Source of the DNA: a virus
Length of the DNA: 44,582 nt
Direction: 5' to 3' (one strand)
Virus record (IMG/VR): IMGVR_UViG_3300018465_000004
Span: 93,019 to 137,600 of that record
Under the pieces are notes generated by a model, which had not been told where the DNA came from, made no database searches, and worked only from the letters and a program-made list of their open reading frames with translations. Made by a program: the position numbers and the translations under genes. Positions 16,461-44,582 of this stretch are shown piece after piece. Each line of letters begins with the position of its first letter. Positions within the stretch are counted from its first letter, which is position 1.

Positions 16461-16481
16461 AGAGGGACGGCGTTGGCAAGT

Positions 16482-23431: not shown

Positions 23432-24442
23432 GTGCCCGACATCAGCCTTCTCGAACCCATGGTCCTGCGGGGCGTGGTCGAGAAGTTCGTCGCTCCCGAG
23501 TCGCTGGTGATGCTCGGGCGCGTACCGAAGACCTCGTGGCCTTTCCCGTCCGTCACCTGGGATGTCATCCGTGGCTCGCGGATGGTCGCCAAGCCCAACG
23601 TCCCGAACTCCGAAGCGCACATCGTGCCCCGGCTCGGCCGGTCGCAGGAAAGCGCTGCGTTCGTCTACCTGCGTGAGAAGAAGGTCTTCGAGCCCACCAC
23701 GCTGCACTGGCTGCGGACTCCGGGCGAGATCGCCTCGACCAACGCGGAGAAGGCCGTCATGCGCGAGGTCGCCGACCTCAACCAGCGCCTGGACAACTTC
23801 GCGGAGTTCACCATCTGGGGCGCCATGAAGGGCGAGCTGGTCCTCGACTACCCCGATGTGCAGACGACGGTGGACTACCAGCTACCGGCAAGCCACAAGC
23901 CCGACCCGGGCACCGGCTGGGACACCGCCACCCCGCAGCAGATCGTCTCCGACATCCGCGCGTGGAAGCGGCTGATCGCCCGCGACGGCCGGGTCCCGGC
24001 CCGGGAGGCGTTCGCCACCGAGCTGACCCTCAGCTACATCTTCGACGCCTTCGCCACCACCGGCGCGGCCAACTTCCCCGGCGGTCAGCTGCTGTCCGAC
24101 CGGATGAAGGACAACTACTACGCGCAGGGCACCCTGCCGGGCTTCATGGGCCTGGAGTGGAAGACCGTCGAGACCGTCTACGACGACGACCTCGGTGTGT
24201 CCACCCTGTTCGTCCCGGACAACGCCCTGTTCATCGGCAACTACACCGACCAGCGGCCGATCGAGCTGATGGTCGGCCCGACCGCGGACGACGAGGCACC
24301 CTCGGGCTTCACCGGCAAGTTCTCGAAGACCTGGAAGGACAAGGACCCGTCGGCGCGGCAGTTCCTGATCGAGTGGAACATCCTGCCGGTGGTCACCCGC
24401 CCCGAGCAGATGGTCTACGTGGACGACGTCACCTCCACCTGA
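23432..24442 (+). CDS. Major capsid protein (lambda gpE-like HK97 fold)
   Basis: 336 aa; AAGGAG RBS; highly biased codons; typical C-terminus (WKDKDPSARQFLIEWNILPV); position. Confidence 0.9.
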   Translation: MPDISLLEPMVLRGVVEKFVAPESLVMLGRVPKTSWPFPSVTWDVIRGSRMVAKPNVPNSEAHIVPRLGRSQESAAFVYLREKKVFEPTTLHWLRTPGEIASTNAEKAVMREVADLNQRLDNFAEFTIWGAMKGELVLDYPDVQTTVDYQLPASHKPDPGTGWDTATPQQIVSDIRAWKRLIARDGRVPAREAFATELTLSYIFDAFATTGAANFPGGQLLSDRMKDNYYAQGTLPGFMGLEWKTVETVYDDDLGVSTLFVPDNALFIGNYTDQRPIELMVGPTADDEAPSGFTGKFSKTWKDKDPSARQFLIEWNILPVVTRPEQMVYVDDVTST

Positions 24443-25230: not shown

Positions 25231-25629
25231 GTGCCTATCCGACGGATCTCGCCGCCCACGCCCGGCGATTCCGGGCCGGTAGGCGCCGGCGCGCCCACCA
25301 CCCTCAGCGCCCCTGCGGACATCGCCACCGGCCGTGGCCCCACCTACGAGTGGGAAACCTTCATGATCGACGCGCTGGAACGCATCGACGCCCTGGAGCA
25401 GGGCGGCGGAGGTGGCGGAAGCCCCGGCACCGGAGCGTCCTACCTGCACGTACAGGCCAGTCCCGCGGCCACCTGGACCGTCACCCACAACCTCGACACC
25501 AAGCCCGTCGTGGCGGTGGTCTCCACCGGCGGAGTCCTGCTGTTCGCCGAGATCAGCTACCCCAACGACAACACCACCGTGATCACCTTCGGCCAGCCAT
25601 ACGCCGGCTCGGCCTACTTCAGGGGATAA
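25231..25629 (+). CDS. Putative head-fibre or structural protein
   Basis: Gly linker and a TVTHNL...NTTVITF beta module shared with the next gene. Confidence 0.65.
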   Translation: MPIRRISPPTPGDSGPVGAGAPTTLSAPADIATGRGPTYEWETFMIDALERIDALEQGGGGGGSPGTGASYLHVQASPAATWTVTHNLDTKPVVAVVSTGGVLLFAEISYPNDNTTVITFGQPYAGSAYFRG

Positions 25630-25638
25630 GGACCGTCG

Positions 25639-26427
25639 ATGGCGATCAAGTTCACCCAGACCGTCGACTTCGACAACCAGCGGTTGACCGCGGTCGGGTC
25701 CCCGTCGGCGGCCACCGATGCCGCCAACAAGTCCTACGTGGACGCCGCCCTCATCGGGCAGGACTGGAAGGCCAGCGTCCGCGCCGCCTCCACCGCCAAC
25801 CTCACCCTGACCGCGCCGGGCTCGACCATCGACGGCGTGTCCATGGTCTCCGGCGACCGGTTCCTCGCCAAGGACCAGTCCACCGGCGGGCAGAACGGCA
25901 TCTACGTCTGGAACGGCGCCGCCAGCGCAGCCACCCGAGCCACCGACGCCGACACCGTCGCCGAGTTCAACACCGGCGCGACCACCTCGGTCGAGGAAGG
26001 CTCGGTCAACGCCGGCAAGACCTTCCTGCTCATCACCCCCGGCCCGATCACCCTGGGCACCACTGCGCTGACCTTCACCCAGGCTGCCGGGTCGTCGAGC
26101 TACCTCGGCGGCGCCGGGCTGACCCTGACCGGCTCCACCTTCGCCGTGGGCGCCGGCACCGGTGTGACCGTCAACGCCGACGACGTGGCCATCGACCCCA
26201 ACGTCGTCGTGCGCAAGTACGCCACCAACGTCGGCAACGGCTCGTCGACCTCCATCACCGTCACCCACAACCTGGCCACCCGCGACGTGATCGTGCAGGT
26301 CTACACCAACGCCACACCCTGGGACACCGTCATCTGCGAAGTGCAGCGCCCCGATACCAACACGGTGACCCTCATCTTCGGCACGGCACCGGCCTCGGGC
26401 GCCTACCGGGCGGTGGTGCACGCGTGA
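25639..26427 (+). CDS. Putative fibre protein
   Basis: DAANKSYVD trimer-neck motif; DWKASVRAASTANL...DRFLAKDQ...QNGIY fibre domain; TVTHNL module. Confidence 0.75.
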   Translation: MAIKFTQTVDFDNQRLTAVGSPSAATDAANKSYVDAALIGQDWKASVRAASTANLTLTAPGSTIDGVSMVSGDRFLAKDQSTGGQNGIYVWNGAASAATRATDADTVAEFNTGATTSVEEGSVNAGKTFLLITPGPITLGTTALTFTQAAGSSSYLGGAGLTLTGSTFAVGAGTGVTVNADDVAIDPNVVVRKYATNVGNGSSTSITVTHNLATRDVIVQVYTNATPWDTVICEVQRPDTNTVTLIFGTAPASGAYRAVVHA

Positions 26428-27476
26428 GCCAGAAGATCCTGGTACCGCTGGACCTCGGCGGGCAACGGCTGACCAACATCGGCGCGCCGACCACCTCCAC
26501 CGACGCCGCCACCCGCTCCTATGTGGACTCCACCAGTGTCGGGCGGTACCGAGGCAACTGGACCTCCGGAACACCCGCTGACGGTCTCGGCGCCTATGTG
26601 ACGTCCGACATCGCCACCTACCAGGGCACCACCTACCGCGCCAACAGCACCCCGGACGCCGGGGTGTCCCCGGCCAACAACCTGGACTGGGACATCATCG
26701 CCCAGGGCGGAGCGGACGGGGTCAACGGCACCAACGGCGTCAGTTTCACCTACCAGGGCGAATGGATCAGCGGCACCCCGTACCTGATCGGTCAATGGGT
26801 CACCTACTCCGGCGACCTGTACTACTGCAACGGCAACATCGCCAACGCCACCGCGGCCCCCAACATCGACGTCGGTTGGAACCTCGGCATGGAAGGCGGC
26901 GGGGGAGGAGGCGTCTCCCCGGGCCAGGTGCCGCTCGCCTCGATCCGCGCCAGCGGCTACCTGTTCACGCAGTGCGCCGGAAGCCAGGGCAACAGCACCG
27001 CGGTTGGCGTCGGTGTGCAGGTGGCCAGTCCGCTGTACATCCCCGATGACACCACCGCCGACCGGTTCTGCTTGCAGATCATCACACTTGCCGCATCCGC
27101 GTTGTGGAGACTCGGCATCTACGCCGACACCGGCGCCCCGACCCACTACCCAGGCGCTCTGGTGTACGAGGCCGGCACCGTCGACGGCAGCACCTCAGGG
27201 GTCAAGGAGATCACGCCCGGCACCCCGCCGGACCTGCCGGCCGGGGTCTACTGGATCTGCGGCAAGGTCGAAGGTGCCTACGCGGCAGCCAGAGGCACCT
27301 CCGGGCCGGTATGGGGCGTGGTCCCCTCAGGCAACAGCTCCAGCAACGATGTGGCCGCCGGTTACATCTGCACCGGTTCCGGTTCCTCGCTACTGAGCAC
27401 GTGGCCATCGTGGGGTACCTCCGGCACCGGAACCGTCGGCGCCGCACCCCGCGTCGGGATCCGGGTGACCGGCTGA
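26424..27476 (+). CDS. Putative fibre protein with carbohydrate-binding-like (YxxGxxVTY) repeats
   Basis: GTGA overlap; DAATRSYVD neck; YRGNW..YVTSDIATYQG and YQGEW..YLIGQWVTYSG repeats. Confidence 0.7.
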   Translation: MSQKILVPLDLGGQRLTNIGAPTTSTDAATRSYVDSTSVGRYRGNWTSGTPADGLGAYVTSDIATYQGTTYRANSTPDAGVSPANNLDWDIIAQGGADGVNGTNGVSFTYQGEWISGTPYLIGQWVTYSGDLYYCNGNIANATAAPNIDVGWNLGMEGGGGGGVSPGQVPLASIRASGYLFTQCAGSQGNSTAVGVGVQVASPLYIPDDTTADRFCLQIITLAASALWRLGIYADTGAPTHYPGALVYEAGTVDGSTSGVKEITPGTPPDLPAGVYWICGKVEGAYAAARGTSGPVWGVVPSGNSSSNDVAAGYICTGSGSSLLSTWPSWGTSGTGTVGAAPRVGIRVTG

Positions 27477-28480
27477 TGGTCCGCTCGTACGGCTCGTTGC
27501 TGGCGTACAACGCCTACACACCCGAGACCTACGACGACGCCGTCGCCGCCCGTGCCGCGTACGAAGCCGGGCAGCCGGCCACCTTCAGCCTGGACAAGAA
27601 GTACCCGCTGATCGCCTGCTGCGGCGACATGGTCTCCGACCCCGACCTGAACGACAACCGCGACCAGCTCGAAGGATCGGCGATCGCGGCGCGCTTCAAA
27701 AGCGTCAGCGATCTCGTCGTCAACAGCAACTGCACCTTCTTCTGCTGCCTGGGCGACAACGTGTACGAGGACGGGCAGCTCGCCAACTACCTCTACGGGT
27801 ACGCCAACACCTTCGGCCGGGTCGACGACAAGTGCCTGCCCATTCCCGGCAACCACGAGTATCAGACCCCGGAGGGCGCGGACTACTACGAGTACTTCGG
27901 GCACAAGGCCGGTGTCCCCGGGCGCGGCTACTACGCGGTGAACATCGCCAACTGGCGCTGGTACAGCCTGAACTCAAACTCGGCCGGAATGGTCGCCGCC
28001 GGCTCGGTACAGGCGTTGTGGTTCGAGGCTGACATGGCCGCCCACGCCGACCGCCCCAAAGTCGTGGCGTGGCACCATCCACGCTGGACCGACGGAGCCA
28101 CCGGAGCGGTCGCCGACGACAACAACTACGACCACCTCTGGCAGCTGATGTACGCCGACGGGAACGTCCAGGTCGCCCTCGCCGGGCACGACCACAACTA
28201 CCAACGGTGGGACACCATCAAGTCAGCCGGCACCGGCGCCAACCCGGCCACCGTGGCGGACGGAATCACCCAGTTCGTCGTCGGGTGCGGCGGGCACAAC
28301 TTCTTCAACCTCATCCCGCTGCGCAACACGGGCGGACCCGGTAACGCCAACCGGTCCACCTACGGCCACGACCGGGCATTCGGCGTCTTGTTCCTGCGCC
28401 TCGGGCCGACCAGCTGGGACTGGATGTTCAAGGGCATCGACGGCACCGTGCACGACGAAGGCAACCGCGCCATCCACTGA
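27476..28480 (+). CDS. Calcineurin-like metallophosphoesterase (purple acid phosphatase type)
   Basis: Motifs GD, GDNVY, GNHE, WHHP and GHDHNY; TGATG overlap. Confidence 0.9.
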   Translation: MVRSYGSLLAYNAYTPETYDDAVAARAAYEAGQPATFSLDKKYPLIACCGDMVSDPDLNDNRDQLEGSAIAARFKSVSDLVVNSNCTFFCCLGDNVYEDGQLANYLYGYANTFGRVDDKCLPIPGNHEYQTPEGADYYEYFGHKAGVPGRGYYAVNIANWRWYSLNSNSAGMVAAGSVQALWFEADMAAHADRPKVVAWHHPRWTDGATGAVADDNNYDHLWQLMYADGNVQVALAGHDHNYQRWDTIKSAGTGANPATVADGITQFVVGCGGHNFFNLIPLRNTGGPGNANRSTYGHDRAFGVLFLRLGPTSWDWMFKGIDGTVHDEGNRAIH

Positions 28481-30363: not shown

Positions 30364-31500
30364 GTGAAGATCCTCATCAAGGCCCCGTTCAACCCGTACA
30401 GCGGCTACGGCAACGACGGCATCGGCATCACCCGGGCGCTGTGTAACGCGGGCCTGGACGTCTACCTCGACCCCAGCCACGTCTCCCCGCCCCTTCCCGC
30501 CGACGTCGCCGACCTGCTCACCAAGCGGCTGGAAGCCCCGTTCGACCTGCTCATCCACCACGTCGACCCGGCCCAGCTCGGTATCAGCCCCGAAGCCCGC
30601 CGCGCCGCACACACCACTGTCGGCTGGACCATGTGGGAATACTCCTCACTGGACAACCTCAAGGGTCGCTCCACCCTGCGCAAGCGGCTGCGTACCTTCG
30701 ACATGCTGCTCGGCTACGACACCGTCACCAGCGAAGCCTTCGCCCCATACCTCGGCCCCAACACTGCCGGCGGCACCTTGCAGGGCGGGTTCTGGCCCGA
30801 GGACTGGCAGCCGGTCGCCCGGGACTGGCACGGGCCACGCTTCGGGTTCTGCATGGTCGGCCAGCTCCACCAACGCAAAGACCCGTTCGTGGCCATCCAA
30901 GCCTTCCGCGACCTGAAAGAGGAGTACCCGGAGGAGTTCGAGCCCGCCGAGCTGCATCTGAAGACCAACGTGCCCGGCCTGCACAAGGCGATGGAGCAGT
31001 GGGTGCCAAAGTTGCGGGTGCACTACTCGACCTGGCCCAGCGACGTCCTCAAGGACTTCTACGCCGCCCAGCACGTCCTGCTCGCCCCCAGCCGGGGCGA
31101 AGGAAAGAACGTCCCGGCGCTGGAGTTCATGTCCACCGGCGGGGCAGTGATCGCCACCAACTGGGGCGGCCACACCCAGTGGCTGTCATCCAGTTACGCC
31201 TACCCACTGGACTACATCCTCGCCGCGGAGGCCCCCACCACGCCTGAGTGCTGCTCCGCCCGCGCCAGCAAGGACCACCTCAAGGCGTTGATGCTGCACA
31301 CCTTCCGCAACCGCGCCGAAGTCGCCCGCAAGGCCGACCTCGCCGCCCAGATCATCCCGTCGATGTGCAACTGGAACGCCGTCATCGACCGGTTGTTCCT
31401 CAAGCTCAACGAACTCGTCCCCATCCGCGGCGCCCATCTGCTGCACGCATACCGGCGCAACCGGGAACGCGTCGAAGACGGGATCACCGTCCTTGCCTAA
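30364..31500 (+). CDS. GT-B fold glycosyltransferase (GT4-like)
   Basis: SGYGN, TMWE, RKD and PSRGEGKNVPALEFMSTG (E-x7-E) motifs. Confidence 0.9.
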   Translation: MKILIKAPFNPYSGYGNDGIGITRALCNAGLDVYLDPSHVSPPLPADVADLLTKRLEAPFDLLIHHVDPAQLGISPEARRAAHTTVGWTMWEYSSLDNLKGRSTLRKRLRTFDMLLGYDTVTSEAFAPYLGPNTAGGTLQGGFWPEDWQPVARDWHGPRFGFCMVGQLHQRKDPFVAIQAFRDLKEEYPEEFEPAELHLKTNVPGLHKAMEQWVPKLRVHYSTWPSDVLKDFYAAQHVLLAPSRGEGKNVPALEFMSTGGAVIATNWGGHTQWLSSSYAYPLDYILAAEAPTTPECCSARASKDHLKALMLHTFRNRAEVARKADLAAQIIPSMCNWNAVIDRLFLKLNELVPIRGAHLLHAYRRNRERVEDGITVLA

Positions 31501-32393: not shown

Positions 32394-33095
32394 ATGGCGA
32401 ACGAAATCGACGTGCTCGACCCGGTCCCGACCACGGTCACCCTGTCCACCGGGACCGTGGTCGAGATCGAGCATCTCAAGGCCCGGCAGTTCTTCAAGTT
32501 CCTGCGCATCATCACCCGCGGCGCGTTGCCCGCGATGCAGGACATGTCGGTCTTCAAGCTCGACGGCGAACAGGACGCCAAGGAGTTCGCCGGCCGGCTC
32601 ATCTCGCTGATGCTGCTGAGCATCCCCGAGGCTGAAGACGAAGCCATCGAATTCATCCAGAGCATGTGCAAGCCCTACGGGCTCATCGAGCGGCGCGGCG
32701 GCAGCAAGCTCAACAAGCAGGACGTCGAACGCAACACCGAGCTGTGGACCCGGGTCATCACCGACCTGGACAATCCCGAGCTTGACGACCTGGTCACCGT
32801 CGTGGAGGCCATCGTCAAGCGGGAAGCCGCAGACATCCAGGCACTGGGAAAACGCCTCAGCGCGATGTTCAAGCTCGCGGAGAAGACGGGCCAGATCCCC
32901 AGCCCATCCCAGAGCCGGACGTCCCCGGCCGGGAACTCCTCGGCGGACTATCCCGCGCCTACGACCTCCTCGCCAGCGAGTACGGATGGACCGACGCCAT
33001 CTGCGGAGACCTCACCCTCCGCCGGCTACGTCAGTGTGTCGCCGCCATTCGGGAGCGACGTCACTACGACAAGTGGGACCGCGATCAATGGCTGA
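32394..33095 (+). CDS. Tail assembly chaperone (gpG-like, zero frame)
   Basis: AGGAGG RBS; position; slippery site at 32846. Confidence 0.8.
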   Translation: MANEIDVLDPVPTTVTLSTGTVVEIEHLKARQFFKFLRIITRGALPAMQDMSVFKLDGEQDAKEFAGRLISLMLLSIPEAEDEAIEFIQSMCKPYGLIERRGGSKLNKQDVERNTELWTRVITDLDNPELDDLVTVVEAIVKREAADIQALGKRLSAMFKLAEKTGQIPSPSQSRTSPAGNSSADYPAPTTSSPASTDGPTPSAETSPSAGYVSVSPPFGSDVTTTSGTAING

Positions 33096-33331: not shown

Positions 33332-36300
33332 GTGGCGGACAGAGTCCAACGGGTCATCTATCGCGTCATCATCGACACCTCAACCCTGGCCGCAGACGCG
33401 GCCAGGGCCAGGGCCATCATCCAGGCGCTGCGCGACGAGGAGAACCGTCAGCCGACCCGCAACACCACGGCGAGCCGGCTCAGCGAGGATCTCAACCGCG
33501 CCCGCAAGGAACTCAAAGCCCTCCAGGACGAAGACAACCGCTACACCGCCCAGGCGGTACGCAACGCCGAGCAGATCCGCAACGCGCGCAAGAAGATCGC
33601 CGACGCTGAGCGGGACATCGCCGCCCAGCGCTCCCGTGCCGTCAGCACCGGTGGGGACACCGACGTACCTGGCGCCGCCGGTGCCGGCCGGACCCCGAGC
33701 CGTGGCGGGGTAGAGCGCAACTACCACCCGCAGCTCAACACCATCATCGTCCAGCTCCAGCGGCTCAACTCCACACTGGACCGCTTCGGCCGCGCCGGGC
33801 AGCTCGGTGGCACAGCCGGCGGGGTTGCCCGGGAGCTGCCCCGGGCGGCCGAGTCCGCCGGGGAGGAACGACGGCGTCCCGCTGCGGCCCCTGCGCGCGC
33901 CTCAGACCAGACCGCCCGGCCAGCCCGGATGCCCCGGCGTCCGGAGGAGCGGCTGCCCGTTCCAACGCCGGAGCAGGACCGTCCCAAGCCACCGGTCCCG
34001 CCACGGCCGCCCATTGAGCCGATCGGGAGCTTCCAGCAACTCACCATCCCCGGGCTGAAGCGCGCCGACCTGCATGACGCCTCGCAGCGGATCTTCCTGC
34101 AACGGGAGGCCCTGCGCACCGAGGCGGAGGACGCCGAGAACCGGATCCGCGCCAACGCTGCGGCGCGAGCGGCAGCCGGCCGTGACGATCAGTCCCGCCC
34201 AAAGCCGCCCCGGATCACCCAACCCGGGTTGTTCTCGGTTGACGAGGCTGACCCCGAGGGAGCCGCCCAGCGCCGGGAACGCCGTGCCGCAGCCAGAGAC
34301 AGAGCACGCGTGGCCCGTGCCATCACGGAGGCACTCACCGCCGCACGGGAGGCGGCGGACCTAGCACGAGCCGAAACCCGCGACGACTCGCAGCGCGATC
34401 CCTTCTCCGGTGTCCGGCCGGATGACCTGCGCGACGTCCCGACCTCGCCCGAATTCCGGCGGCAGGCCGTCACCGACGCTGAAGCCGACCGCCGGGAGCG
34501 CAAGCGGGTAGAGGCGGAGCGCAAAGCCCACCAGCGCCGCCTGGACCTCGCGCACCGGGAGGCGCTGGCCTTCGAGCGCGCCGAGCAGCGTCGTGCCGAG
34601 GCAGCCGAACGTGCCGCGCAACGCGGGGCAGCAGCGGCCGAGCGTGCCGCGCAACGCAAAGCAGCCGCCGAAGAGAAGGCGGAACAGCGCGCAATCGCTG
34701 CTGCGAAGAAGGAACTGGAAGCCCAGGAGCGGGCGACCAGGAAAGCCGCCGAGGCCCAGGAGCGTGCCGACCGGCGGGCTCAGGCAGCTGAGGAACGGGC
34801 CGCCGAGGCGCGGGCGCGGATCAGAGCGCAGGAAGAACGGGCGGTTGAGGCCGCAGCACGGCGCCGCTACGAGAGCCAGCAACGTGAGATTGAACGCGCC
34901 CGGCTGGCTCACCTTCAGGCGATCGCCGACGACCAGGGGCAGTCGCTGTTCGGGCGTCGCGGTGTCCGAGCTGCTGACTTCCGGCCGAACCTGCCAACCG
35001 ACGATGACGGCCGGACCCTCCCGCTGGCCGCCTCACCGGGTCGGGTTTCCCGTGACGAACTTCGGGCCCGCAACGAACGGCGCGCGGCTGAGGAGCGGGA
35101 GCGTCGTGCCCGCCGGTTCCTCGGCGACACAACGGGCGGAGCGGAAACCCACCAGGAACAGGGCGACCTGCTCGACGTCCTCCGCGAGGTCGAGGAAGAG
35201 ACGGGCCGGATCGCCCAGACCCGTCGGCATCACACGGCGGCGGTCCGCGACGAGAACCGGGAACTCTCCGGCCAGCTCAACCTGCTAGACGAGCTGGCGC
35301 GGGTTCAGCGCGGCTTCAGACGCCCCGACTCGGATCCATGGCCGACCCGGACCTGGACCCCGGGCACCGACCAGGACCAGATGAACCGGCTTACCGCCGC
35401 GATGGACCGGGTCCGGGCCGCCACCAACCGCGCGACCGTCGCGCAACGGGACCACAACCGCACCCGGACCTACGCCGCCCAGCAGGTCGCCCAGCAGACC
35501 GCGGCACTGAACACCAGCACCCAGAGCGTCAACACCAACACCACCAGCACCAACAACAACACCCAGAGCCAGGTCAACAACCAGCGTGCGATCGCGCGGG
35601 CCGCCCAGGCGGCGCGTACCCGCGCCGCGCGGATCGCCCAGGCGCTGCGCCGCCGTGCGACGCCCGGCGCCCCAGGGCAGCCCGGCCCCAGCCCGCTCAG
35701 CCGAGCAGCCCGCGGAGCGGTCTCCGGCGTCCAGGGTCTCGCCTCGGGTATCGGCGCAGTCGCGAATGCGTTGACCGCCTCCTCGCTTGGCCGCTGGCGG
35801 TACTGGCAGGTCTTGCTGGCCGCGATCCTGGCCATCCTGGTCCTGCTCATTCCCCTGGTGGTTTCCGCAACTGCCGCCATCGGCGCCCTCGCTTCGGCAG
35901 GCGTGGTCGCCTTTGCTGGCCTGGCGGTCTTTGCCCTGGCCGCCGTCGGAAACGTCAAGAAGCTCACCGAGGCCATCAAGGAGGCCCAACGCACCGGCGC
36001 TAGGCTGCCCGCTCAGTACCAGGCAGCCGGGAGGGCGTTCGACGGACTCAGCGACGCCTACCGGAAGTTCCAGGCCGAGACCCGCCAGCCGGTCTTCGGA
36101 ACGCTCATCGACGCGATGGGCATCGCCACCCGGATGCTGCCCCGCCTCGTCCCCATCGCCGCCGCGGTCGGAGCCGGGATCCGCCAGGCCCTCGGGGTAC
36201 TCGACGACGCCTTCAGCAGCGGCGGGTTCGACGAGTTCCTCGCCCTCATCAGCCGCACAGCGCCCGGCGTCATCGTTTCGCTGACCCGCTCCGTTGCCAG

Positions 36301-38974
36301 CTTCTCGGCCGGATTCGCGGAACTGTTCGCCGCTTTCGAGCCGTACTTCGACTGGGTCCTCACCGGCCTGGAGAACATGGCCGATGGGTTCCGACGGTGG
36401 GCGGCGAGCCTGGAGACCTCGGATGCATTCCGGGAGTTCATGGACTACGCCAAGCGCGAAGGACCGCGCGTCCTGGAGACCGTTGGCGCGCTGGTGAGCC
36501 TCATCATCGACCTCGGAAAGGCACTGGCGCCGGCCGGTGAGTTCGGCCTGTTCCTGATCCGGGTGTTCGCCGAGCTGCTCGACGCCATCCCGACCGACGC
36601 CCTTCAGGCCGTCACCATCATTCTCACCGGATGGCTTGCCCTGCGCGGCGCGGTACTGATCCTCAACCTGCTCGCCGCCGGACTGGCCCTGGTTGGCCGG
36701 GCAGCCCTGGCCATGCGCCTCAACATCGCCGCAGCGGCGGTGTCGATGGTCGGGCTGTCCGTTGGCGCCCATCGAGCACGGACGGGCCTGACGGCGCTGC
36801 AAGTCACTGCGGCAGCCACCCGAGCCGCGATGATCGGCCTGGGCCTCATCGCGGTCGGCCTGCTCGCTGTGTGGTCGGCGATGAGCGAGTCGCAGGCCCG
36901 TGCGCGGCGCGCCACCGAAGAGCACAGAGACGCCGTGATCGGGCTGGCACACGAGCTTCAAGCCAGTGACGGCGTAGCCACCAACCAGCTGCGGCAGGAG
37001 AAGCTGCGCGGATTCGCCACCAACAAGGTCGAGCCACGCACGGGCTGGCTGCCGTGGAACCGCGACAAGAACCTCGCATTCCAGAAGGACTCCACGACCG
37101 TCCTGGAAGAGTCCAAGATTGCCGGCGTCGACACCGGAACCCTCATCGAGGGAGCTGTCGGCGACGACAAGGCACGAAACGACGCCATCGCTAAGTGGCA
37201 GGCGTTCATCGCCAAGCTCAAGGAAGAGCGCGACAAGGCGATGCCGAACAGCGTGCGACGCAACGAGCTGACAGGCCAGATCGCCGAATCCCAGCGGGCA
37301 CTGGACGCCTACAAGAACCAGACCGCGTCGGCGAAGGATCTGGCCGAGGCCAACGCCGACCTCGACGCGGCGACCTCGCGGACAGCGGACGGGATGGACG
37401 CCGAGGCCGCCGCTGCTGAGCGGCTACGCAAGACCCTTGACCAGCTCACCGAGACCACCAAGGAGCAGGACCGCATCCAGGCCGCCATCGACGCCCGGCA
37501 GCGCTATCTGGACCTGGTGGAGCAGCAATCCGACGCGGAACGCGATCTGGGCCGATTGAAGGAGGACGTAGCCCTCAACAATGAGCGCGCGCTTCTGCGC
37601 GAGGAGCGGGCTGAGCTGAACCTTGTTGAGGCCCAGCGCCGCGCCAAGGAAAGCCAGGAGGCCGTCAACCGCGCCCGCGAAACAGCTGCTCTCAAATTGG
37701 AGGAATACCGCGACCGGCTCCGCGATGTGGCCCTCAATGAGGAGCAGGCGTCCATCTCTCTCGCACGGGCTGAGGAGAATTTGCGCCGGGTCATGAACGA
37801 CCCCGGCTCCAGCCAGCTCGACCGTCGACAGGCCCTTCTTGATCTTCAAAGAGCCAAGAACGACTGGACGGACCAGCTTGAAGAAAACCAGCTCACCCGC
37901 ATCGATGCTGGTCGCGCGATTGACAAGGGGGTCGAGGGCAGCGACGAGGTATTGCAAGCGATCCGCGACCGTGACCAGGCGACCCGCGATCTGCGGGACG
38001 CTGAGCGGGAGCTGAAAGACGCCCAACGCGACCGGATCCGGACCGAGCAGGACGGCAAAGAGGCCCTCGAAGACGCCCAACGCGAGTTCGGCGAGCTGGC
38101 CACCGAGGTCTCCAAGGCTCGTGAGCAGGTCGAGAAGCTGACGGCTGCGGCCAACCTGACCCCCGCCAGCCTCGACGCGATGATCAAGAAGCACCAGGAG
38201 CTGCGCGACCAGCTGGCCAAGGAACTGTCCACCAAGGGACTGGACGACTTCGAGGCCAGGCTCAAGACGCTGCTGAAGTACCAGCGCGCCACCCAGCTCG
38301 TCGCCAGCAACCCGAACATGACCATTGACCAGGCACTGAAGGCCGCCGAAAAGGAGTTCAACGCCGAAGCCCGGCGTCGCTCCGAGTTCGAGCGCCGCAC
38401 CGGCGAGGCATACGCCTCCGGCGGCCCGGTCCGTGGGCGCGGCACCGGGACATCCGACGAAATCCCCGCCTGGTTGTCAGCGGGCGAACACGTATGGACC
38501 GCCGCCGAAACCGTAGCCATCGGCGGGCACCGTGTTGTCGAGACCCTCCGGGGCGCCGCCAAGGCCGGCAAGTTCACCGAGAAGGACGTCATGTCCTTCT
38601 TCTCCGGGGCCGCGCAGACCTTCGCCACTGGCGGGTACCAGGGCAAGCCGCTGTCCGGAGGCCAGTACTTCGACCCCGCCACCGGGAAGTGGAAGTGGGC
38701 TCCCGGCGCCCGCGGCATCGGGCACTTCGAAGCGGCGCAACTGTCCAAGCGGTACATCCCGGAGATCCCCACCGGCGGCCTCACCGACACCGCCCGCGGC
38801 ACGTACCAGCCCACCATCTCCGCCGGCTCGGTTAAGCAGAGCTACGCCGGCACCAGTGCCGGCGGGGGCGGGATGTCCATCGGTCAGATCACCATCAACA
38901 ACCCCGTCGTCGAGCCGGCCGGCGAGTCGCTCTACCGCGCTGTCCGCAAGCTCACCTTCGAGTACGAGAGCTGA
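33332..38974 (+). CDS. Tape measure protein
   Basis: 1880 aa; helical and Ala-rich with hydrophobic segments; C-terminal YASGGPVRGRGTGTSDEIPAWLSAGEHV motif. Confidence 0.93.
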   Translation: MADRVQRVIYRVIIDTSTLAADAARARAIIQALRDEENRQPTRNTTASRLSEDLNRARKELKALQDEDNRYTAQAVRNAEQIRNARKKIADAERDIAAQRSRAVSTGGDTDVPGAAGAGRTPSRGGVERNYHPQLNTIIVQLQRLNSTLDRFGRAGQLGGTAGGVARELPRAAESAGEERRRPAAAPARASDQTARPARMPRRPEERLPVPTPEQDRPKPPVPPRPPIEPIGSFQQLTIPGLKRADLHDASQRIFLQREALRTEAEDAENRIRANAAARAAAGRDDQSRPKPPRITQPGLFSVDEADPEGAAQRRERRAAARDRARVARAITEALTAAREAADLARAETRDDSQRDPFSGVRPDDLRDVPTSPEFRRQAVTDAEADRRERKRVEAERKAHQRRLDLAHREALAFERAEQRRAEAAERAAQRGAAAAERAAQRKAAAEEKAEQRAIAAAKKELEAQERATRKAAEAQERADRRAQAAEERAAEARARIRAQEERAVEAAARRRYESQQREIERARLAHLQAIADDQGQSLFGRRGVRAADFRPNLPTDDDGRTLPLAASPGRVSRDELRARNERRAAEERERRARRFLGDTTGGAETHQEQGDLLDVLREVEEETGRIAQTRRHHTAAVRDENRELSGQLNLLDELARVQRGFRRPDSDPWPTRTWTPGTDQDQMNRLTAAMDRVRAATNRATVAQRDHNRTRTYAAQQVAQQTAALNTSTQSVNTNTTSTNNNTQSQVNNQRAIARAAQAARTRAARIAQALRRRATPGAPGQPGPSPLSRAARGAVSGVQGLASGIGAVANALTASSLGRWRYWQVLLAAILAILVLLIPLVVSATAAIGALASAGVVAFAGLAVFALAAVGNVKKLTEAIKEAQRTGARLPAQYQAAGRAFDGLSDAYRKFQAETRQPVFGTLIDAMGIATRMLPRLVPIAAAVGAGIRQALGVLDDAFSSGGFDEFLALISRTAPGVIVSLTRSVASFSAGFAELFAAFEPYFDWVLTGLENMADGFRRWAASLETSDAFREFMDYAKREGPRVLETVGALVSLIIDLGKALAPAGEFGLFLIRVFAELLDAIPTDALQAVTIILTGWLALRGAVLILNLLAAGLALVGRAALAMRLNIAAAAVSMVGLSVGAHRARTGLTALQVTAAATRAAMIGLGLIAVGLLAVWSAMSESQARARRATEEHRDAVIGLAHELQASDGVATNQLRQEKLRGFATNKVEPRTGWLPWNRDKNLAFQKDSTTVLEESKIAGVDTGTLIEGAVGDDKARNDAIAKWQAFIAKLKEERDKAMPNSVRRNELTGQIAESQRALDAYKNQTASAKDLAEANADLDAATSRTADGMDAEAAAAERLRKTLDQLTETTKEQDRIQAAIDARQRYLDLVEQQSDAERDLGRLKEDVALNNERALLREERAELNLVEAQRRAKESQEAVNRARETAALKLEEYRDRLRDVALNEEQASISLARAEENLRRVMNDPGSSQLDRRQALLDLQRAKNDWTDQLEENQLTRIDAGRAIDKGVEGSDEVLQAIRDRDQATRDLRDAERELKDAQRDRIRTEQDGKEALEDAQREFGELATEVSKAREQVEKLTAAANLTPASLDAMIKKHQELRDQLAKELSTKGLDDFEARLKTLLKYQRATQLVASNPNMTIDQALKAAEKEFNAEARRRSEFERRTGEAYASGGPVRGRGTGTSDEIPAWLSAGEHVWTAAETVAIGGHRVVETLRGAAKAGKFTEKDVMSFFSGAAQTFATGGYQGKPLSGGQYFDPATGKWKWAPGARGIGHFEAAQLSKRYIPEIPTGGLTDTARGTYQPTISAGSVKQSYAGTSAGGGGMSIGQITINNPVVEPAGESLYRAVRKLTFEYES

Positions 38975-38979
38975 CCGGG

Positions 38980-39852
38980 ATGGCCAACAACACCGACGAA
39001 TACTGGGAGATCGACGGGGTCTCCCTGCACCAGTACGGCTGGAGCGTGTCGACCCTGTCCGGCACCCGCTTGTCCGTACCGCCACTGCGCGGTGCCGACC
39101 GGCAGTTCGCCTTCGTCGCGGGGGAGGAGTTCCGACCCAAGGTCCCCGGCCCGAAGGTCATCACCCTCAACATGTGGCTCACCGGCTCAGACCCCGCCAC
39201 CGGCATACCCGCTGAGGATCAGCGCCGCGCATGGAACGACAACTGGCAGCGGCTGCGCACGCTCATGTGGACCCCGACCCGGCAGTTCACGCTGACGCGG
39301 CGTTTGTTGCTGTCCGATGAGGACGGCGACCCCTACGTCCAGACCACCACCACGCTTGGCCAGTACCTGGGAGGGCTCGAACCGGGTATGACCGGTCGGA
39401 CCCGGGCCACCTTCTCGGTCGACGTCAAGCTGACCCACCCGTTCTTCTACGGCACCCAGCAGACCCACACGATCGACGTCGACGAGACCGCCACCATCAC
39501 CAACCCGGGCGACACCCAGACCTGGGCCAGGCACGTCTATGTCGACCTGGTCGGCCCGTTGGAGAACGCCACGCTGACCAACAGCACCCCGGCCCCGGAC
39601 GTCAGCGTCAGCTACAGCGGTGATGTGAACGACGGGCAGACCGTCACCCTCGATGTCTGGCAGTTCTCTGCCATGGCCGCCGTCGACGAGCCGTCCATCC
39701 CCGAGATCGACAGCCGCAACCGGATCGGACAGATCAGCCACTCCGGCGCCCGGGAGTTCTTCGGGCTGCTCAAAGGCGCCAACAGCATCACCCTGACCGC
39801 CGACTCCGGGACCGGACACGCCGAGCTGCGTTTCCGCCCGCCCTACCTGTAG
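38980..39852 (+). CDS. Distal tail (Dit-like) minor tail protein
   Basis: Follows the tape measure gene; ITNPGD...LVGP..N and LLKGANSI patterns. Confidence 0.75.
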   Translation: MANNTDEYWEIDGVSLHQYGWSVSTLSGTRLSVPPLRGADRQFAFVAGEEFRPKVPGPKVITLNMWLTGSDPATGIPAEDQRRAWNDNWQRLRTLMWTPTRQFTLTRRLLLSDEDGDPYVQTTTTLGQYLGGLEPGMTGRTRATFSVDVKLTHPFFYGTQQTHTIDVDETATITNPGDTQTWARHVYVDLVGPLENATLTNSTPAPDVSVSYSGDVNDGQTVTLDVWQFSAMAAVDEPSIPEIDSRNRIGQISHSGAREFFGLLKGANSITLTADSGTGHAELRFRPPYL

Positions 39853-39860
39853 GAGTTGGC

Positions 39861-40244
39861 GTGGCTGAGCTGACCGACACCCTGGAGTTCTGGCACCCGC
39901 AACGCGACGAGAAGCTCGACGAGAACTACTTCCCGTGGGGCGTCGCCGTCCCGGGCTCCAGCGCCGACCGGGTCTTCCGCGTCCGCAACCTCTCCCACAC
40001 CTACACCGCGGTCGACGTCGTCGTCAGCCTCCAGGAAATGGGCATCGCCGAACCCACCCTGTCGGTGGCCGCCCAGCACTACCTGTCGGTCGACGGACGC
40101 ACCTTCGCCGCCACCGCGGCGCTCGGCAGTCTCGCACCCCGCGCGGTCTCCGACCGGATCACCCTGCGCCGGGTCACCGCGCTGGACGCCGACCCCGGCT
40201 TCGGCGACTTCCAACTCCTCGCCCACCCCACCGAGTGGAACTGA
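39861..40244 (+). CDS. Minor tail protein
   Basis: AGGAG RBS; position. Confidence 0.6.
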   Translation: MAELTDTLEFWHPQRDEKLDENYFPWGVAVPGSSADRVFRVRNLSHTYTAVDVVVSLQEMGIAEPTLSVAAQHYLSVDGRTFAATAALGSLAPRAVSDRITLRRVTALDADPGFGDFQLLAHPTEWN

Positions 40245-40257
40245 GAAAGGAACCGAC

Positions 40258-40692
40258 GTGGCCGTCACCGCCACGCCCTACGGGCAGTCGTTCAAAAGCC
40301 TCGGCCTTGGAAGGTTCGACTTCACGACGCACACCTTCAAGCTGCTGCTCACCACCTCCAGCTACACCCCGACCTTCGACCTCGACGAGTTCCGCGACGA
40401 TGTCACCAACGAGGTCACCGGCACCGGCTACACCGCCGGAGGAGCGACGCTGGCCGGGCTGAGCTGGGTCTACGACGCCGCCAACGACCGGTGCCAGCTC
40501 AGCTGTGACCCGGTCACCTGGACCTCGGCGACCTTCACGGCCCGGCGAGGGGTCATCTACCGCTCAACCGGAACCGCTGCCACCGACCCGCTGCTGTCCT
40601 GGGTGGACTTCGGCGCCAACGCCAGCCCGTCCGGGATCGACTTCACCCTCACCTTCCCGAACGGCATCTACCGGCTCAAGCTGCCCGCCTAA
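40258..40692 (+). CDS. Minor tail protein
   Basis: FKLLL...NEVTGTGYTAGG motif common in phage minor tail proteins. Confidence 0.7.
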   Translation: MAVTATPYGQSFKSLGLGRFDFTTHTFKLLLTTSSYTPTFDLDEFRDDVTNEVTGTGYTAGGATLAGLSWVYDAANDRCQLSCDPVTWTSATFTARRGVIYRSTGTAATDPLLSWVDFGANASPSGIDFTLTFPNGIYRLKLPA

Positions 40693-40708: not shown

Positions 40709-42127
40709 ATGACCACGAAATTCAACACCGCCGCCGGTGCGCCCGGGGAAGGTGTCGCAGCATCCACGGCCAACACCGGCGGTGCATCGGGTGACGCTTT
40801 CGATCATCTTTACCTCACCGACGGCAGTGTCGTCTTCACCGAGGCGCTCGGCGTGTGGAGTTACCACCACACCACCGACATTGGCGGGTGGGCAGCCACC
40901 CAGTACGCCTTCGCCGACACCGTTCGCGCCGCCGGACGCTTCGACGTCTACCTCACTGCCTATCCCGATGAGGAGGCCGGCTTCCCTGCTGGCTCGATGA
41001 ACCTGGCCACCGTTTACACCGAAGAGGGCCAGTGCGACATCTACGTTCTCAACGACGGTCGAGTCCTGCTCACCGACAGCGAGAGCGACACGGTCGCCCT
41101 GTCCACCGAAGTTCTGCCGTTGAGCCAGTGGGCGGCAGTCGAGTGGGACCTGGTCTTCGACGCTGTCGGCACCTATGAGCTGCGGATATACACCGATGCG
41201 GCCGGCAGCGTCGATGAGACCCTGTCCGGACCTGAGACCTGGTCCCGTGGCGCGGACACCATGCACAGCACCGCGTTCGGGACCGCTGCCGCAGGCGAGG
41301 AGGTCTCCTACTACCTGCGCAACGTCGGCGCCTCGGACAGCGAGATCCCGGCCAGGCCGCCGGATGCGTTCGTCATCCCGCCCGCCCTGGTCGACGTCGA
41401 GACGCCAGCGCCGCTGGTCGGGGTCGCGGTCCCGGTCGTCAACGTGGACGTCGTCGTCTTCGCTCCGAAGCTCATCGACGCGAGCGTCGCCCTGGTCGCA
41501 CCGGCCGACGACTACCTGCTGCCGACAGTGCTGCCCACCTTCACCATCACCGTCGCCAGCGACACCCCGGCATTGACCGCGCAGATCCAGTACGACACCG
41601 ACGAGGACTTCACCGCGCCGACCACCCTCACCGTCGCCGTACCCGCAGGGCTGTCGGTCAACCGGGCATCGGTCAAGGCGAGCGTCGCGTTGGATGACGA
41701 CACCACCTACTTTTGGCGCGCCCGCGCCGTCAACGACTTCGACGTTGCGGACTGGACCCCACCGTTCACGTTCGCGACGTCCACATTCGACGGTGACGCC
41801 CTCGCCGGCGGGAGCTGGACGGTCAGCACCGACACGGTGCCCTACCCGCACGTCTGGTTCCTCTACCCCGCCCGCGGCCGGGTCGGAGATCTGGTTACCG
41901 CGGTGGGCACCGGGCTCGGCCCCACCGTTGTCACGGCCACCGTCGGCGGGGCTGACGCGCCGGTCGACAGCTTCACCTCTGTCGCCGCCGACGGGGACGC
42001 CTACACCGCCGACCGGATCATCAGCGCCGACACCGGCCGGGCCAGCCCCGACCACCAGCGCGTCGTCTTCGAGATCCCAGCCGACGCCGTGTCACCCGGC
42101 GGAGTCGTCTACCTGGACGGGAGCTGA
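40709..42127 (+). CDS. Minor tail protein with beta-sandwich, Fn3 and IPT-like domains
   Basis: TTYFWRARA (Fn3-like) and P.RG.VGD.VTAVGTGLG (IPT-like); ATG at 40709. Confidence 0.7.
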   Translation: MTTKFNTAAGAPGEGVAASTANTGGASGDAFDHLYLTDGSVVFTEALGVWSYHHTTDIGGWAATQYAFADTVRAAGRFDVYLTAYPDEEAGFPAGSMNLATVYTEEGQCDIYVLNDGRVLLTDSESDTVALSTEVLPLSQWAAVEWDLVFDAVGTYELRIYTDAAGSVDETLSGPETWSRGADTMHSTAFGTAAAGEEVSYYLRNVGASDSEIPARPPDAFVIPPALVDVETPAPLVGVAVPVVNVDVVVFAPKLIDASVALVAPADDYLLPTVLPTFTITVASDTPALTAQIQYDTDEDFTAPTTLTVAVPAGLSVNRASVKASVALDDDTTYFWRARAVNDFDVADWTPPFTFATSTFDGDALAGGSWTVSTDTVPYPHVWFLYPARGRVGDLVTAVGTGLGPTVVTATVGGADAPVDSFTSVAADGDAYTADRIISADTGRASPDHQRVVFEIPADAVSPGGVVYLDGS

Positions 42128-42130
42128 GCC

Positions 42131-43894
42131 GTGGCACTGTCCAACGGGCTGTACCTCGAAGTCATCGACACCACCCCGCTGCAAAACGTGGGTTGGGAAG
42201 TGCAGGTGGTGTCCACCGCGGACTTCGGCAAACTGTGCACCGGGCAGTCCTACGCCCCGCTGACCATCATCTCCCGCTTCGTCGAAGTCACCATCAGCCC
42301 CGAGATCAGCGGACTCGGCGCCGGCTCCATCACCCTGGACCTCGACGACGACCTGTGGACCCACGACCTGACCGACGGCTCCCCAGCCCGCACCCTGCTG
42401 GAGTACGAGCACCTGTGGCAGGTGTACCAGAACGGGGCGTTGCGCTGGGCGTTCCTCGGCCAGTCCATCGAGGACACCGTCCTGCCCTCCGACGAAGGCC
42501 AGATGCGGGCGGTGGTGATCTCCGGCAAAGGCCCCGGCGACGTGCTGCGCGACGGCCGGGTGATGACCCCGTACTACCCCTACGCCGCACCGCTCAACTC
42601 CACCGACCCGTCGTTCTACGAGTTCCGCCGCATCACCGTCATGGGCGCCTGGCTCTACCTGCTCGCCGAGGCACGCAAGCGCGGCACCCTCCAGTTCATC
42701 TGCCACAGCTTCGACAGGGACCGCGACACCGGCGGCGAGGAGTGGGAAGACAAGCCGCTCCCGATCCCGGACCCGACCTACGTCACCGACGTCCTCCAGG
42801 CCGACGTCAACTTCTTCCCCGACTCCTACGACCTGTCCGACGCGGCCGAGGCCAAGCTCGCCGGCATCTGCGGCGAGTTCAACCACATGCCCGCCCCGCA
42901 GCTGACCATCGTCGGGCACACCGACAGCACCAACACCCACGCCTACAACCAGACCCTGTCGGAGAACCGGGCCAATGCGGTAGCAAACTTCATCCGCGGA
43001 ATCGTCCCGCAGGTCGTCATGAACGTCTCCGGCCGCGGTGAAACCCAGCCCATCGCCACCAACGCCACCGCCCGCGGCCGGGAGTACAACCGGCGGGTCA
43101 CCCTGCGGTATCCGACCGGGCCGAAGCCACCGGTCGAGCCCTACATCGACATGTCAGGCATGCTCGGCATCAACCTGCTCGACCTGCTGGAGGAGTGGAC
43201 CGGCGGCGACGTCGACCAGCCGGCCCCGATCCGGGCCGAGTGGATGATGCGACCCAACTTCGTCCTGGACATCCGCCGCCTCTTCGGCCAGCGCCGCGAC
43301 CGGCAGGTGGTGTTCTACGAGGGCTCCCTGGCCACGGTGTCCAAGCAGCGCTCCCGGCAGCGTTCCGACATCGCCAACCTGATCGCCGTCCAGGACACCC
43401 TGGGCAACTACGCCATCGTCGGTGACACCGCCTCCAAGGCGCGGTGGCGGCAACGGGAGCACTACAGCCGACCGACCGGCACCTTCAGCCCGGAGTCCCT
43501 GACCGCCATCGCCCAGACGATCATGTACCGCGACAAGGACGAACGGGCCACCTGGACCATCAAGGTCGCCCCGGACGCCGAAGGCCGCCGGGTCTTCGAG
43601 GACTACAACCTCGGCGACTGGGTCGGCATCAGCCGCTACCTCGGCGGCCAACCCAACCTGGTCGAGCGGTTCCGGGTGATGGCCATCTCGCTTCGGGTCG
43701 ACGCGGACAACAACGAAGACCTCGAACTGAGCCTGCAAACCAACGCCGAGTTCTACCTGCAACGGCTGCGGATGCGCCTGACCTCGATCCTCAACCACAA
43801 GACTGGCGTCGAGGTGTTCGTCCAGGACGTCGCACCGCCCAACGCGAAGGTCGGCGACCTGTGGACGCTGGCCGCCGATGACATGTACGCCTGA
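42131..43894 (+). CDS. Tail-tip/hub (Tal, ReqiPepy6 gp37-like) protein with an inserted OmpA-C-like domain
   Basis: GAGSITL N-terminus and DYNLGDWV C-terminal hub motifs; internal IVGHTDS...YNQTLSENRANAV...GRGETQPIATN...NRRV. Confidence 0.85.
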   Translation: MALSNGLYLEVIDTTPLQNVGWEVQVVSTADFGKLCTGQSYAPLTIISRFVEVTISPEISGLGAGSITLDLDDDLWTHDLTDGSPARTLLEYEHLWQVYQNGALRWAFLGQSIEDTVLPSDEGQMRAVVISGKGPGDVLRDGRVMTPYYPYAAPLNSTDPSFYEFRRITVMGAWLYLLAEARKRGTLQFICHSFDRDRDTGGEEWEDKPLPIPDPTYVTDVLQADVNFFPDSYDLSDAAEAKLAGICGEFNHMPAPQLTIVGHTDSTNTHAYNQTLSENRANAVANFIRGIVPQVVMNVSGRGETQPIATNATARGREYNRRVTLRYPTGPKPPVEPYIDMSGMLGINLLDLLEEWTGGDVDQPAPIRAEWMMRPNFVLDIRRLFGQRRDRQVVFYEGSLATVSKQRSRQRSDIANLIAVQDTLGNYAIVGDTASKARWRQREHYSRPTGTFSPESLTAIAQTIMYRDKDERATWTIKVAPDAEGRRVFEDYNLGDWVGISRYLGGQPNLVERFRVMAISLRVDADNNEDLELSLQTNAEFYLQRLRMRLTSILNHKTGVEVFVQDVAPPNAKVGDLWTLAADDMYA

Positions 43895-43903
43895 GGAGGT
43901 GCC

Positions 43904-44101
43904 ATGACCTCGCCGTACAACCCGTCCCTGCTGCACGCCCGGCTGCCGGTCGGGTTCCGCCTGGTCGGCACCGCGGCGCAGCCCCTGATGATCCGCGCCT
44001 ACGAGGGATGGCGGGTCTACCCGGGAAGCACCGTGCCGGTCAGGCAGAAGATGCCCGACGGGAGCTGGCTGGACGTGCTGTGGACACCCTCAGTGGGCTG
44101 A
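43904..44101 (+). CDS. Hypothetical protein, 65 aa
   Basis: GAGGAGGT RBS. Confidence 0.7.
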   Translation: MTSPYNPSLLHARLPVGFRLVGTAAQPLMIRAYEGWRVYPGSTVPVRQKMPDGSWLDVLWTPSVG

Positions 44102-44582
44102 GCACCGTCGTCATCAACCTGGCCCGCCGCCCGGACCGGCTGGCCGCCTTCCACACCCGCTGGCGGGCCACCGGGGTCAACCGCACCCCGACCGTCTACC
44201 CCGCCATCGATACCGGCGACGAGGCCGGCTGCCTCGCCAGCCACCTTGCCGTCCTGATGACCTACCCCGGGCCGCTGCTCGTCCTGGAGGACGACTGCTG
44301 CTTCAGCCCGGACTTCACCCTCGACCTGCACCCACCCGCCGACTGGAACGTCCTGTGGCTGGGCGGTCAGCACCGCCTCGTCCCCACCCCCGTCGACGAC
44401 GTCTGGGCCAGACCGAGGTACCTGCTACGCACCCACGCCTACATCACCCGGTACCCCGACCAGCTCGCCGAGGCGCTGCGCACCCACACCCCACCGCGGC
44501 TGGACCCCTACCTGGCGCAGCTTCCGATTCCACAGTACGTGCTCAGGCAGCACACCGCCGGGCAGGTATCCGGCCGCAGCGA
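44080..44582 (+). CDS. Glycosyltransferase family 25-like (3'-truncated)
   Basis: Absent from the ORF track because no stop lies in the window: VINLARRPDR, GCLASH, LVLEDD, WNVLWLG and THAY motifs. Confidence 0.85.
   Translation, partial: MDTLSGLSTVVINLARRPDRLAAFHTRWRATGVNRTPTVYPAIDTGDEAGCLASHLAVLMTYPGPLLVLEDDCCFSPDFTLDLHPPADWNVLWLGGQHRLVPTPVDDVWARPRYLLRTHAYITRYPDQLAEALRTHTPPRLDPYLAQLPIPQYVLRQHTAGQVSGRS

Follow-up and report, generated by a model that had tools for sequence, protein, structure and literature searches.

A phage baseplate hub with an internal OmpA-like domain, a candidate peptidoglycan anchor of the tail tip

Here, we analysed a stretch of 44,582 nucleotides of viral DNA (IMG/VR record IMGVR_UViG_3300018465_000004, positions 93,019 to 137,600), hereafter referred to as the window, and found that its gene at 42131-43894, which encodes the baseplate hub of a phage tail, has an OmpA_C-like domain between the two halves of the hub fold. 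The domain is real and complete, and its similarity to OmpA-C domains is far beyond chance. The hubs of phage tails are trimers that close the tail tube and are located under the hexamer of the distal tail protein (Dit), and to our knowledge the modules known at tail tips are carbohydrate binders or hydrolases. The way in which siphophages commit to infection on the thick walls of Gram-positive bacteria and actinobacteria is poorly understood. OmpA-like domains bind the diaminopimelate (DAP) residue of non-cross-linked stem peptides by means of a conserved Asp/Arg pair, and the occurrence of such a domain in the hub suggests that the tail tip grips the peptide stems of the cell wall directly. 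The structural interpretation is supported by several lines of comparison, but the function, which we infer, is plausible. The hub gene can be divided into the following segments, given with their window coordinates and with the evidence for each.

42131..43894, + strand: baseplate hub (gp27/Mu gp44/Sipho_Gp37-like), 587 amino acids (aa), with an internal OmpA-like domain (open reading frame, AlphaFold2 model, fold matches).
42131..42745, + strand: N-terminal half of the hub, aa 1-205 (aligns to aa 5-190 of the relative L081; matches of the N-half hidden Markov model in 161 homologues).
42746..42790, + strand: linker 1, aa 206-220, proline-rich, with KPLPIPDP at aa 208-215 (translation; 37% mean pairwise identity).
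42791..43111, + strand: OmpA_C-like peptidoglycan-binding domain, aa 221-327, with the putative ligand residues D265 and R280 (PF00691, fold, motif alignment).
43112..43165, + strand: linker 2, aa 328-345, proline-rich, with PTGPKPPVEP at aa 328-337 (translation; the least conserved segment, 23% identity).
43166..43765, + strand: C-terminal half of the hub, aa 346-545 (aligns to aa 202-403 of the L081 protein; the C-terminal part of PF14594 matches here in homologues).
43766..43894, + strand: C-terminal tail, aa 546-587 and the stop codon, with the conserved end EP..A..GDLWT (alignment) and no fibre or lysin extension.

The inserted domain matches the OmpA profile of Pfam (PF00691) with an E-value of 2e-15 and a score of 57.4 bits, compared with a cut-off of 27.2, and the match extends over aa 228-321 and over positions 2-98 of the 98 positions of the profile. 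The best domain-level matches of the insert in NCBIfam are the YiaD, PA1041-anchor, YfiB, TssL and Pal models. Furthermore, a profile of the family matches 78 solved chains of OmpA-C, Pal, MotB, YfiB and TssL; the top match is the C-terminal domain of OprF (5u1h, E 1e-25), and Rv0899/ArfA of Mycobacterium tuberculosis is among the solved structures. Alignment to OprF shows that the motifs GHTDS..AYNQ.LSE.RANAV and G.GE.QPIA.N.TA.GR..NRRV are intact in the insert, with D265 (in GHTD) and R280 (in LSENRA) at the motif positions of OprF. We take these two residues to be the equivalents of D271 and R286 of OmpA from Acinetobacter baumannii, which contact the carboxylate and the amine of DAP in solved complexes. 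The preliminary description of this DNA, made from the letters alone, had placed a textbook OmpA-C domain at 42791-43111 (aa 221-327), with its ligand Asp (in GHTD) and Arg (in NRA) and with the proline-rich linkers KPLPIPDP and PTGPKPPVEP on either side. The profile match, the translation and the OprF alignment bear out this reading in each of these parts, and the two linkers are poorly conserved.

The three-dimensional model of the insert leads to the same assignment. The segment of aa ~211-331 of the model superposes, using VIA-align, onto the peptidoglycan-binding domain of A. baumannii OmpA (3td3) with a Z score of 17.6 and a root mean square deviation (rmsd) of 2.2 Å over 118 residues, and onto Pal (4g4v) with a Z score of 16.6 and an rmsd of 2.0 Å. 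Foldseek gives TMt values of 0.77-0.82 for the insert against 3td3, 3td4 and 3td5, the last two of which are the DAP-bound and the pentapeptide-bound forms. No other OmpA module is encoded in the 137.6 kb genome.

The model of the whole hub was made with AlphaFold2 as a monomer, based on an alignment of 89 sequences, and has a mean confidence (pLDDT) of 92.5 and a pTM of 0.83. The hub fold is composed of aa ~18-205 and ~346-550 together and is of the gp27/Mu gp44/VgrG type, on which Foldseek and VIA-align agree. The Z scores are 20.8 for the MuSo2 protein (3cdd), 20.2 for the monocin tip, 19.3 for Mu gp44 (1wru) and 18.2 for 80alpha Tal (6v8i_AE), followed by NF5 Tal (17.7), the hub of mycobacteriophage Douge (8zdo_s, 17.7) and the Bxb1 tail tip (9d93_Oa, 15.3). 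In these superpositions about 280-330 residues are aligned, which span aa 18-550 of the model. By sequence, the Sipho_Gp37 family (PF14594) scores 14.8 bits in the hub, under the gathering score of 26.2, because the insert of ~140 aa splits the profile. The same family is above threshold in homologues (P0012, P0014 and P0024; in close homologues on the C-terminal third), and it is matched over the whole profile in relatives that have no OmpA domain (profile positions 8-368 in L083 and 1-368 in P0093).

No hydrolase family was found in the hub using Pfam, PHROGs and NCBIfam, and the protein ends ~40 aa past the hub core; it is therefore named here a baseplate hub and not a Tal in the strict sense of a tail lysin. 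Of the earlier assignment to a Tal/gp37-like protein, the Gp37-type hub stands, by fold, by PF14594 in the homologues and by its context next to the tape measure protein (TMP) and Dit, and the name Tal does not, as there is no lysin domain. The hubs with an OmpA domain have only 21-32 aa after the core, compared with 100-1900 aa in many relatives. All of them are closed by the motif V.I.D.EP..A..GDLWT (window 43811-43891, hub aa ~561-587). In gp38 of the Microbacterium phage Magritte a similar GDLW motif is found at aa ~845 and is followed by 600 aa more, and the hubs with an OmpA domain look truncated exactly where a fibre-like extension would start.

Comparison with relatives shows that the OmpA domain is a true insertion between the hub halves. 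The segments aa 3-205 and 346-557 of the hub align to aa 5-190 and 202-403 of the protein L081, which lacks an OmpA domain, so that ~140 residues stand in the place of a link of 11 residues. Homologues were collected by an exhaustive profile-free search of 1.84 billion representatives together with a word-indexed search, which gave a set of 161 proteins holding both hub halves. The two halves are joined by 0-25 aa in 121 of the 161; an insert of 126-139 aa, which is an OmpA domain in every case, is present in 37, and five homologues have other inserts, of 68-263 aa. One of these five, P0092 (locus L129:2401-4635), has a DUF7910 and a PG_binding_1 domain (PF01471, aa 291-346) exactly at the junction where the OmpA domain is grafted, and it comes from the same type of phage, with the gene order hub, SNF2, sigma and DnaB. 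There is a second hot-spot for insertions, located in the hub's N-terminal half (aa ~150-165, window 42575-42625), at which relatives (L085, P0141, P0198 and P0228) have inserts of 150-450 aa that correspond to CBM_4_9, a ConA-like lectin (Laminin_G_3) or an NlpC/P60 endopeptidase. The statement of the preliminary description that Tal insertions are usually hydrolases or carbohydrate-binding modules thus agrees with what these relatives carry, at a site other than that of the OmpA domain.

The module was acquired essentially once and has been kept under selection. In a tree of the hub core, made with FastTree after removal of the insert, 32 of the 33 non-redundant hubs with an OmpA domain form one clade with 99% local support. 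The outlier, P0105, was considered as a second independent gain; since its module is located at the same site and has HTD...SRA intact, P0105 was treated as a divergent member. Of all segments of the hub the insert is conserved best: in a clade whose members are 38-57% identical, its mean pairwise identity is 53%, that of the hub halves 46-48% and that of the linkers 23-37%. R280 is present in 27 of 27 and D265 in 26 of 27 members of the OmpA clade, and G262, H263 and N273 are also invariant. There is no discontinuity of GC content, or of GC content at third codon positions (GC3), at the insert, which is therefore an old acquisition. A tree of the OmpA domain over 112 columns gives no resolution of the donor lineage; Pseudomonadota score best and Actinomycetota are close. 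The architecture, which might have proved common, is rare, with ~28 clusters at 90% identity and ~12 at 50%, all of them metagenomic and several on contigs of 135-138 kb. Any names that the sources give to the hubs with an OmpA domain are automatic labels, such as 'OmpA-like peptidoglycan-associated protein' or 'hypothetical protein'.

The window makes up the final 44.6 kb of one virus contig of 137.6 kb, in which no other hub is encoded. The structural module is of the siphovirus type, and the genes at the tail end of it are arranged in the order TMP, Dit, three small or variable genes, and hub. Its members are listed below.

13151-15202: portal, siphovirus-type structural module.
23432-24442: major head protein, siphovirus-type structural module.
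32394-33095: tail assembly chaperone, siphovirus-type structural module.
33332..38974, + strand: TMP, 1880 aa (PHROG tape measure families, best E 3e-23).
38980..39852, + strand: Dit, 290 aa (31% identity end to end to Magritte gp37, E 2e-42; tail protein phrog_7455).
39861..40244, + strand: tail-tip protein of 127 aa, syntenic (same position, 125 aa, in L122 and L124).
40258..40692, + strand: tail-tip protein of 144 aa, phrog_644 (E 3e-34; syntenic genes of 140-145 aa in relatives).
40709..42127, + strand: variable protein of 472 aa that adjoins the hub upstream, a candidate receptor-binding protein (near-orphan).

Magritte gp37 carries PF22768 (SPP1_Dit). The 127-aa protein has no family match in Pfam, PHROGs or NCBIfam. 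For the 472-aa protein, a search of 5.8 billion proteins yielded a single homologue, a distant one. The protein varies in its N-terminal part and is conserved in the C-terminal ~220 aa, with 40% identity to the L122 protein. This C-terminal segment is FN3/IPT-like by eye, and the proteins at the same position in relatives have 415 aa and 706 aa. The near-orphan status, the variable N-terminal part and the conserved C-terminal part would fit a receptor-binding protein. The genes for an SNF2 helicase, a sigma factor and DnaB, which come after the hub in relatives, are located at the start of the contig (C1:1021-2676). This arrangement suggests a near-complete genome in permuted form, although the contig showed no terminal repeat. 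The last open reading frame (window 44008-44582) runs off the end of both the window and the contig.

Other genes of the module can be noted. The TMP of the window has 1,880 aa, but the TMP genes of the relatives L122 and L124 encode 3,551 and 3,926 aa, and TMPs of this enormous size imply very long tails in parts of the phage group. Inside the structural module, window 25350-28480 encodes a fibre-like protein of 708 aa (phrog_26419; aa 471-494 give a weak signal for CBM_5_12) and, after it, a calcineurin-like metallophosphoesterase (PF00149, E 5e-11). A glycosyltransferase (phrog_2170, E 4e-28) is part of the tail gene block at window 30364-31500, and this position is occupied by a glycosyltransferase in Magritte too, where it lies between the tail terminator and the major tail protein. 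An open reading frame of 1,317 aa in the head module (window 16473-20426) has no Pfam or PHROG match; the equivalent position in Magritte is occupied by gp17, a hypothetical protein of 1,991 aa. Elsewhere in the genome (C1:50022-50816, L132:2023-2817) there is a candidate endolysin of 264 aa, with a C-terminal PG_binding_1 domain and ~200 N-terminal aa that have no assignment. A single phage thus has PG_binding_1 on its candidate endolysin and OmpA on its hub.

The host is probably an actinobacterium (a high-GC Gram-positive bacterium), since the genome encodes Lsr2 (PF11774, E 8e-24, and PF23359; C1:9122-9514, L130). One relative carries DUF397 in addition to Lsr2, and the base composition is 68% GC with a GC3 of 86%. 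The nearest isolate is Magritte, which has a genome of 133 kb, a portal that is 50% identical and a shared overall synteny; its hub is collinear with the hub described here and has no room for the insert. The relatives of the portal include many phages of Gordonia, Corynebacterium and Rhodococcus. A WhiB motif, sought as a further clue to the host, was not found, and comparison of the lysins gave no host signal, the candidate lysin having PG_binding_1 and the Magritte lysin four copies of PG_binding_1 with Amidase_2 and VanY. A tRNA-Leu(UAA) is found at C1:56543-56617, yet TTA accounts for 0 of the 4,963 codons in the seven structural genes that were counted.

Based on these data, a model of the function of the hub is proposed. 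The phage is an uncultured siphovirus-type phage of ~138 kb, most probably actinobacterial, into whose single baseplate hub a complete OmpA_C-like module has been spliced, via two flexible proline-rich linkers, at the connection of the hub halves. By analogy with all solved hubs, which are trimers, the tail tip would display three of these modules, and three predicted peptidoglycan-binding sites with them. The modules may bind the non-cross-linked, diaminopimelate-type stem peptides of the host wall in a pocket that includes Asp265 and Arg280. By this binding the tail tip would be anchored and oriented on or in the peptidoglycan while the phage adsorbs irreversibly and ejects the tape measure and the DNA, and the recognition of specific hosts would fall to the hypervariable 472-aa neighbour and to fibre proteins. 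We consider it reasonably probable, by analogy with known OmpA-like domains, that the modules of the hub are the peptidoglycan anchor of the tail tip. A role as receptor or anchor is suggested by the conservation of the module and by the parallel insertion of PG_binding_1 in a sister lineage, which, being at the same site, supports peptidoglycan as the ligand. As the module is conserved and the 472-aa neighbour is hypervariable, the module would be a generic wall anchor rather than a determinant of specificity.

Several points weigh against a peptidoglycan anchor. The binding of OmpA-like domains is weak and depends on free DAP groups, and these groups are partly substituted in walls of the Streptomyces type, which have LL-DAP and Gly. 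Contacts with the hub could occlude the ligand pocket. In a host with mycolates, which is a diderm, the wall would be reachable only after penetration. Moreover, no lysin domain that would breach the wall was found in the hub or in the TMP using Pfam.

The module could instead be the primary receptor binder that determines host range, with the chemotype of the peptidoglycan as the receptor and with the module (OmpA, PG_binding_1 or none) swapped according to the type of wall. The presence of two different peptidoglycan-binding modules at the same hub site in sister lineages would agree with this, as would the lack of a C-terminal extension with a fibre or receptor-binding protein in the hubs that have an OmpA domain, and the lack of an insert in the hub of Magritte, whose host is Microbacterium, a genus without DAP. 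However, this correlation with the host comes from one isolate only, and no part of the hub is better conserved than the module across a clade of 38-57% identity, whereas receptor-binding proteins evolve fast. A hypervariable protein is encoded immediately upstream of the hub, the fibre-like protein of 708 aa is also present, and stem-peptide chemistry is common to many genera and would provide little specificity, so that we regard a primary receptor as unlikely. It is improbable, too, that the domain retains the OmpA fold without binding peptidoglycan and instead serves other baseplate proteins for structural docking or oligomerisation, or has a different anionic polymer of the wall as its ligand. 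The pTM of 0.83 suggests that the position of the domain on the hub is fairly fixed, the genes between Dit and the hub encode three small conserved proteins of unassigned role, and OmpA-like domains in general can dimerise and act as modules of protein interaction. Against a docking role, the residues that are kept invariant are those that contact DAP in solved complexes, the linkers are proline-rich and poorly conserved, as is expected for a tethered module, and the parallel insertion of PG_binding_1 suggests that both modules have peptidoglycan as their ligand.

The host might also be a diderm, either a mycolate actinobacterium or a Gram-negative bacterium, in which the module would work like that of Pal, MotB or TssL and fix the tip to the peptidoglycan once the outer layer had been crossed. 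Most of the cellular OmpA domains that score closest belong to Pseudomonadota, ArfA/Rv0899 of M. tuberculosis is among the solved relatives, and phages of Gordonia, Corynebacterium and Rhodococcus are among the relatives of the portal. However, the donor signal is not resolved on 112 columns, the Lsr2 of the genome speaks against a Gram-negative host, Magritte as the nearest isolate has the monoderm Microbacterium as its host, and DUF397, which a relative carries, generally points to filamentous monoderm actinomycetes; a diderm host is accordingly given a low probability. An assembly chimera or an annotation artefact, for which nothing speaks other than the metagenomic origin of the sequence, is effectively refuted and its probability is negligible: the architecture recurs, with conserved synteny, in at least 27 full-length proteins that are distinct from one another and come from independent assemblies (JGI, NCBI, ENA and Logan), the reading frame runs through without a break, and there is no GC or GC3 discontinuity at the insert.

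If the hub has an OmpA domain that binds stem peptides, the tail tip would be anchored mechanically and directly to the sacculus, which is the same solution as that of flagellar stators and type VI secretion systems (T6SS). The module might be of use as a probe of wall chemotypes, and the insert marks a defined site for grafts in the hub scaffold. A broader and rather doubtful idea is that in this group of actinophages of ~135 kb the tail hub reads the chemistry of stem peptides, the junction between the halves being a socket in which an OmpA-like module, PG_binding_1 or none is swapped to match the wall chemotype of the host. If that were true, the type of peptidoglycan would be a determinant of host range that is sensed at the tail tip.

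No equivalent or published description of an OmpA_C-like module on a virion hub was found in phage records, BFVD, bacterial genomes or the searchable literature, as the preliminary description had supposed. A megablast search of 50,697 phage records with 24.6 kb had no matches, and tblastn of the hub against the same records gave only matches to the OmpA domain, which belong to phages of Gram-negative hosts and to bacterial records present as contaminants. A scan of 185k bacterial species genomes likewise gave OmpA-domain matches only and no full-length hub with an OmpA domain. The best matches in BFVD are actinophage hubs labelled 'minor tail' or 'Gp37-like', which cover the hub part only, with TMq ≤ 0.52. 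Full-text searches of the literature found no OmpA-like module on a phage hub, only T6SS, flagellar and unrelated papers, and nothing for 'Sipho_Gp37'; the papers on the Douge hub and on the Claus, Corndog and Mysterious hubs do not mention an OmpA-like insert.

The family of the hub scaffold and the grafting of binding modules into Tal and Dit are both established, and the present finding, made in uncultured phages, extends a known principle of design. Mu gp44, the MuSo2 43 kDa protein, T4 gp27, the N-terminal domain of 80alpha Tal and the baseplate hub proteins of Douge and Bxb1 have the fold that is formed by both halves of the hub described here. Solved hubs such as Mu gp44 and 80alpha Tal are found in the same neighbourhood, downstream of TMP and Dit; their sequence identity to this hub is only 7-14%, and no insert that is OmpA-like or otherwise binds peptidoglycan has been reported in any of them. 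The minor tail proteins of actinophages in PF14594 (ReqiPepy6 Gp37-like) are homologous to the hub, but none of the members catalogued in INPHARED and BFVD has an OmpA module. Lactococcal and streptococcal siphophages have 'evolved' Tal and Dit proteins, into which carbohydrate-binding modules are inserted (PMC7533335), and the principle is the same as in the hub, in that a conserved baseplate scaffold receives a grafted binding module. The insert of the hub differs from these in its type, which is that of an OmpA_C-like stem-peptide binder and not of a carbohydrate-binding module, and in its position, which is the junction between the halves and not the hot-spot of carbohydrate-binding modules. 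Virion-associated hydrolases and endolysins (PG_binding_1, LysM, SH3b) are likewise phage proteins with a non-catalytic peptidoglycan-binding module, whereas the hub has no catalytic domain and its OmpA-type module is internal to a structural fold. Outside phages, TagL of the T6SS is an OmpA-like peptidoglycan anchor of an envelope machine (PMC8253398). The domain and its motif residues are shared by the insert with TagL/TssL, MotB/PomB/MotY, Pal, YfiB, OprF-C and ArfA, and the proposed job is comparable, that is, to fix a machine that generates force or injects to the sacculus. However, these envelope anchors hold the machine in their own cell, on the periplasmic side, whereas the module of the hub rides on a virion and would engage the wall of the target cell.

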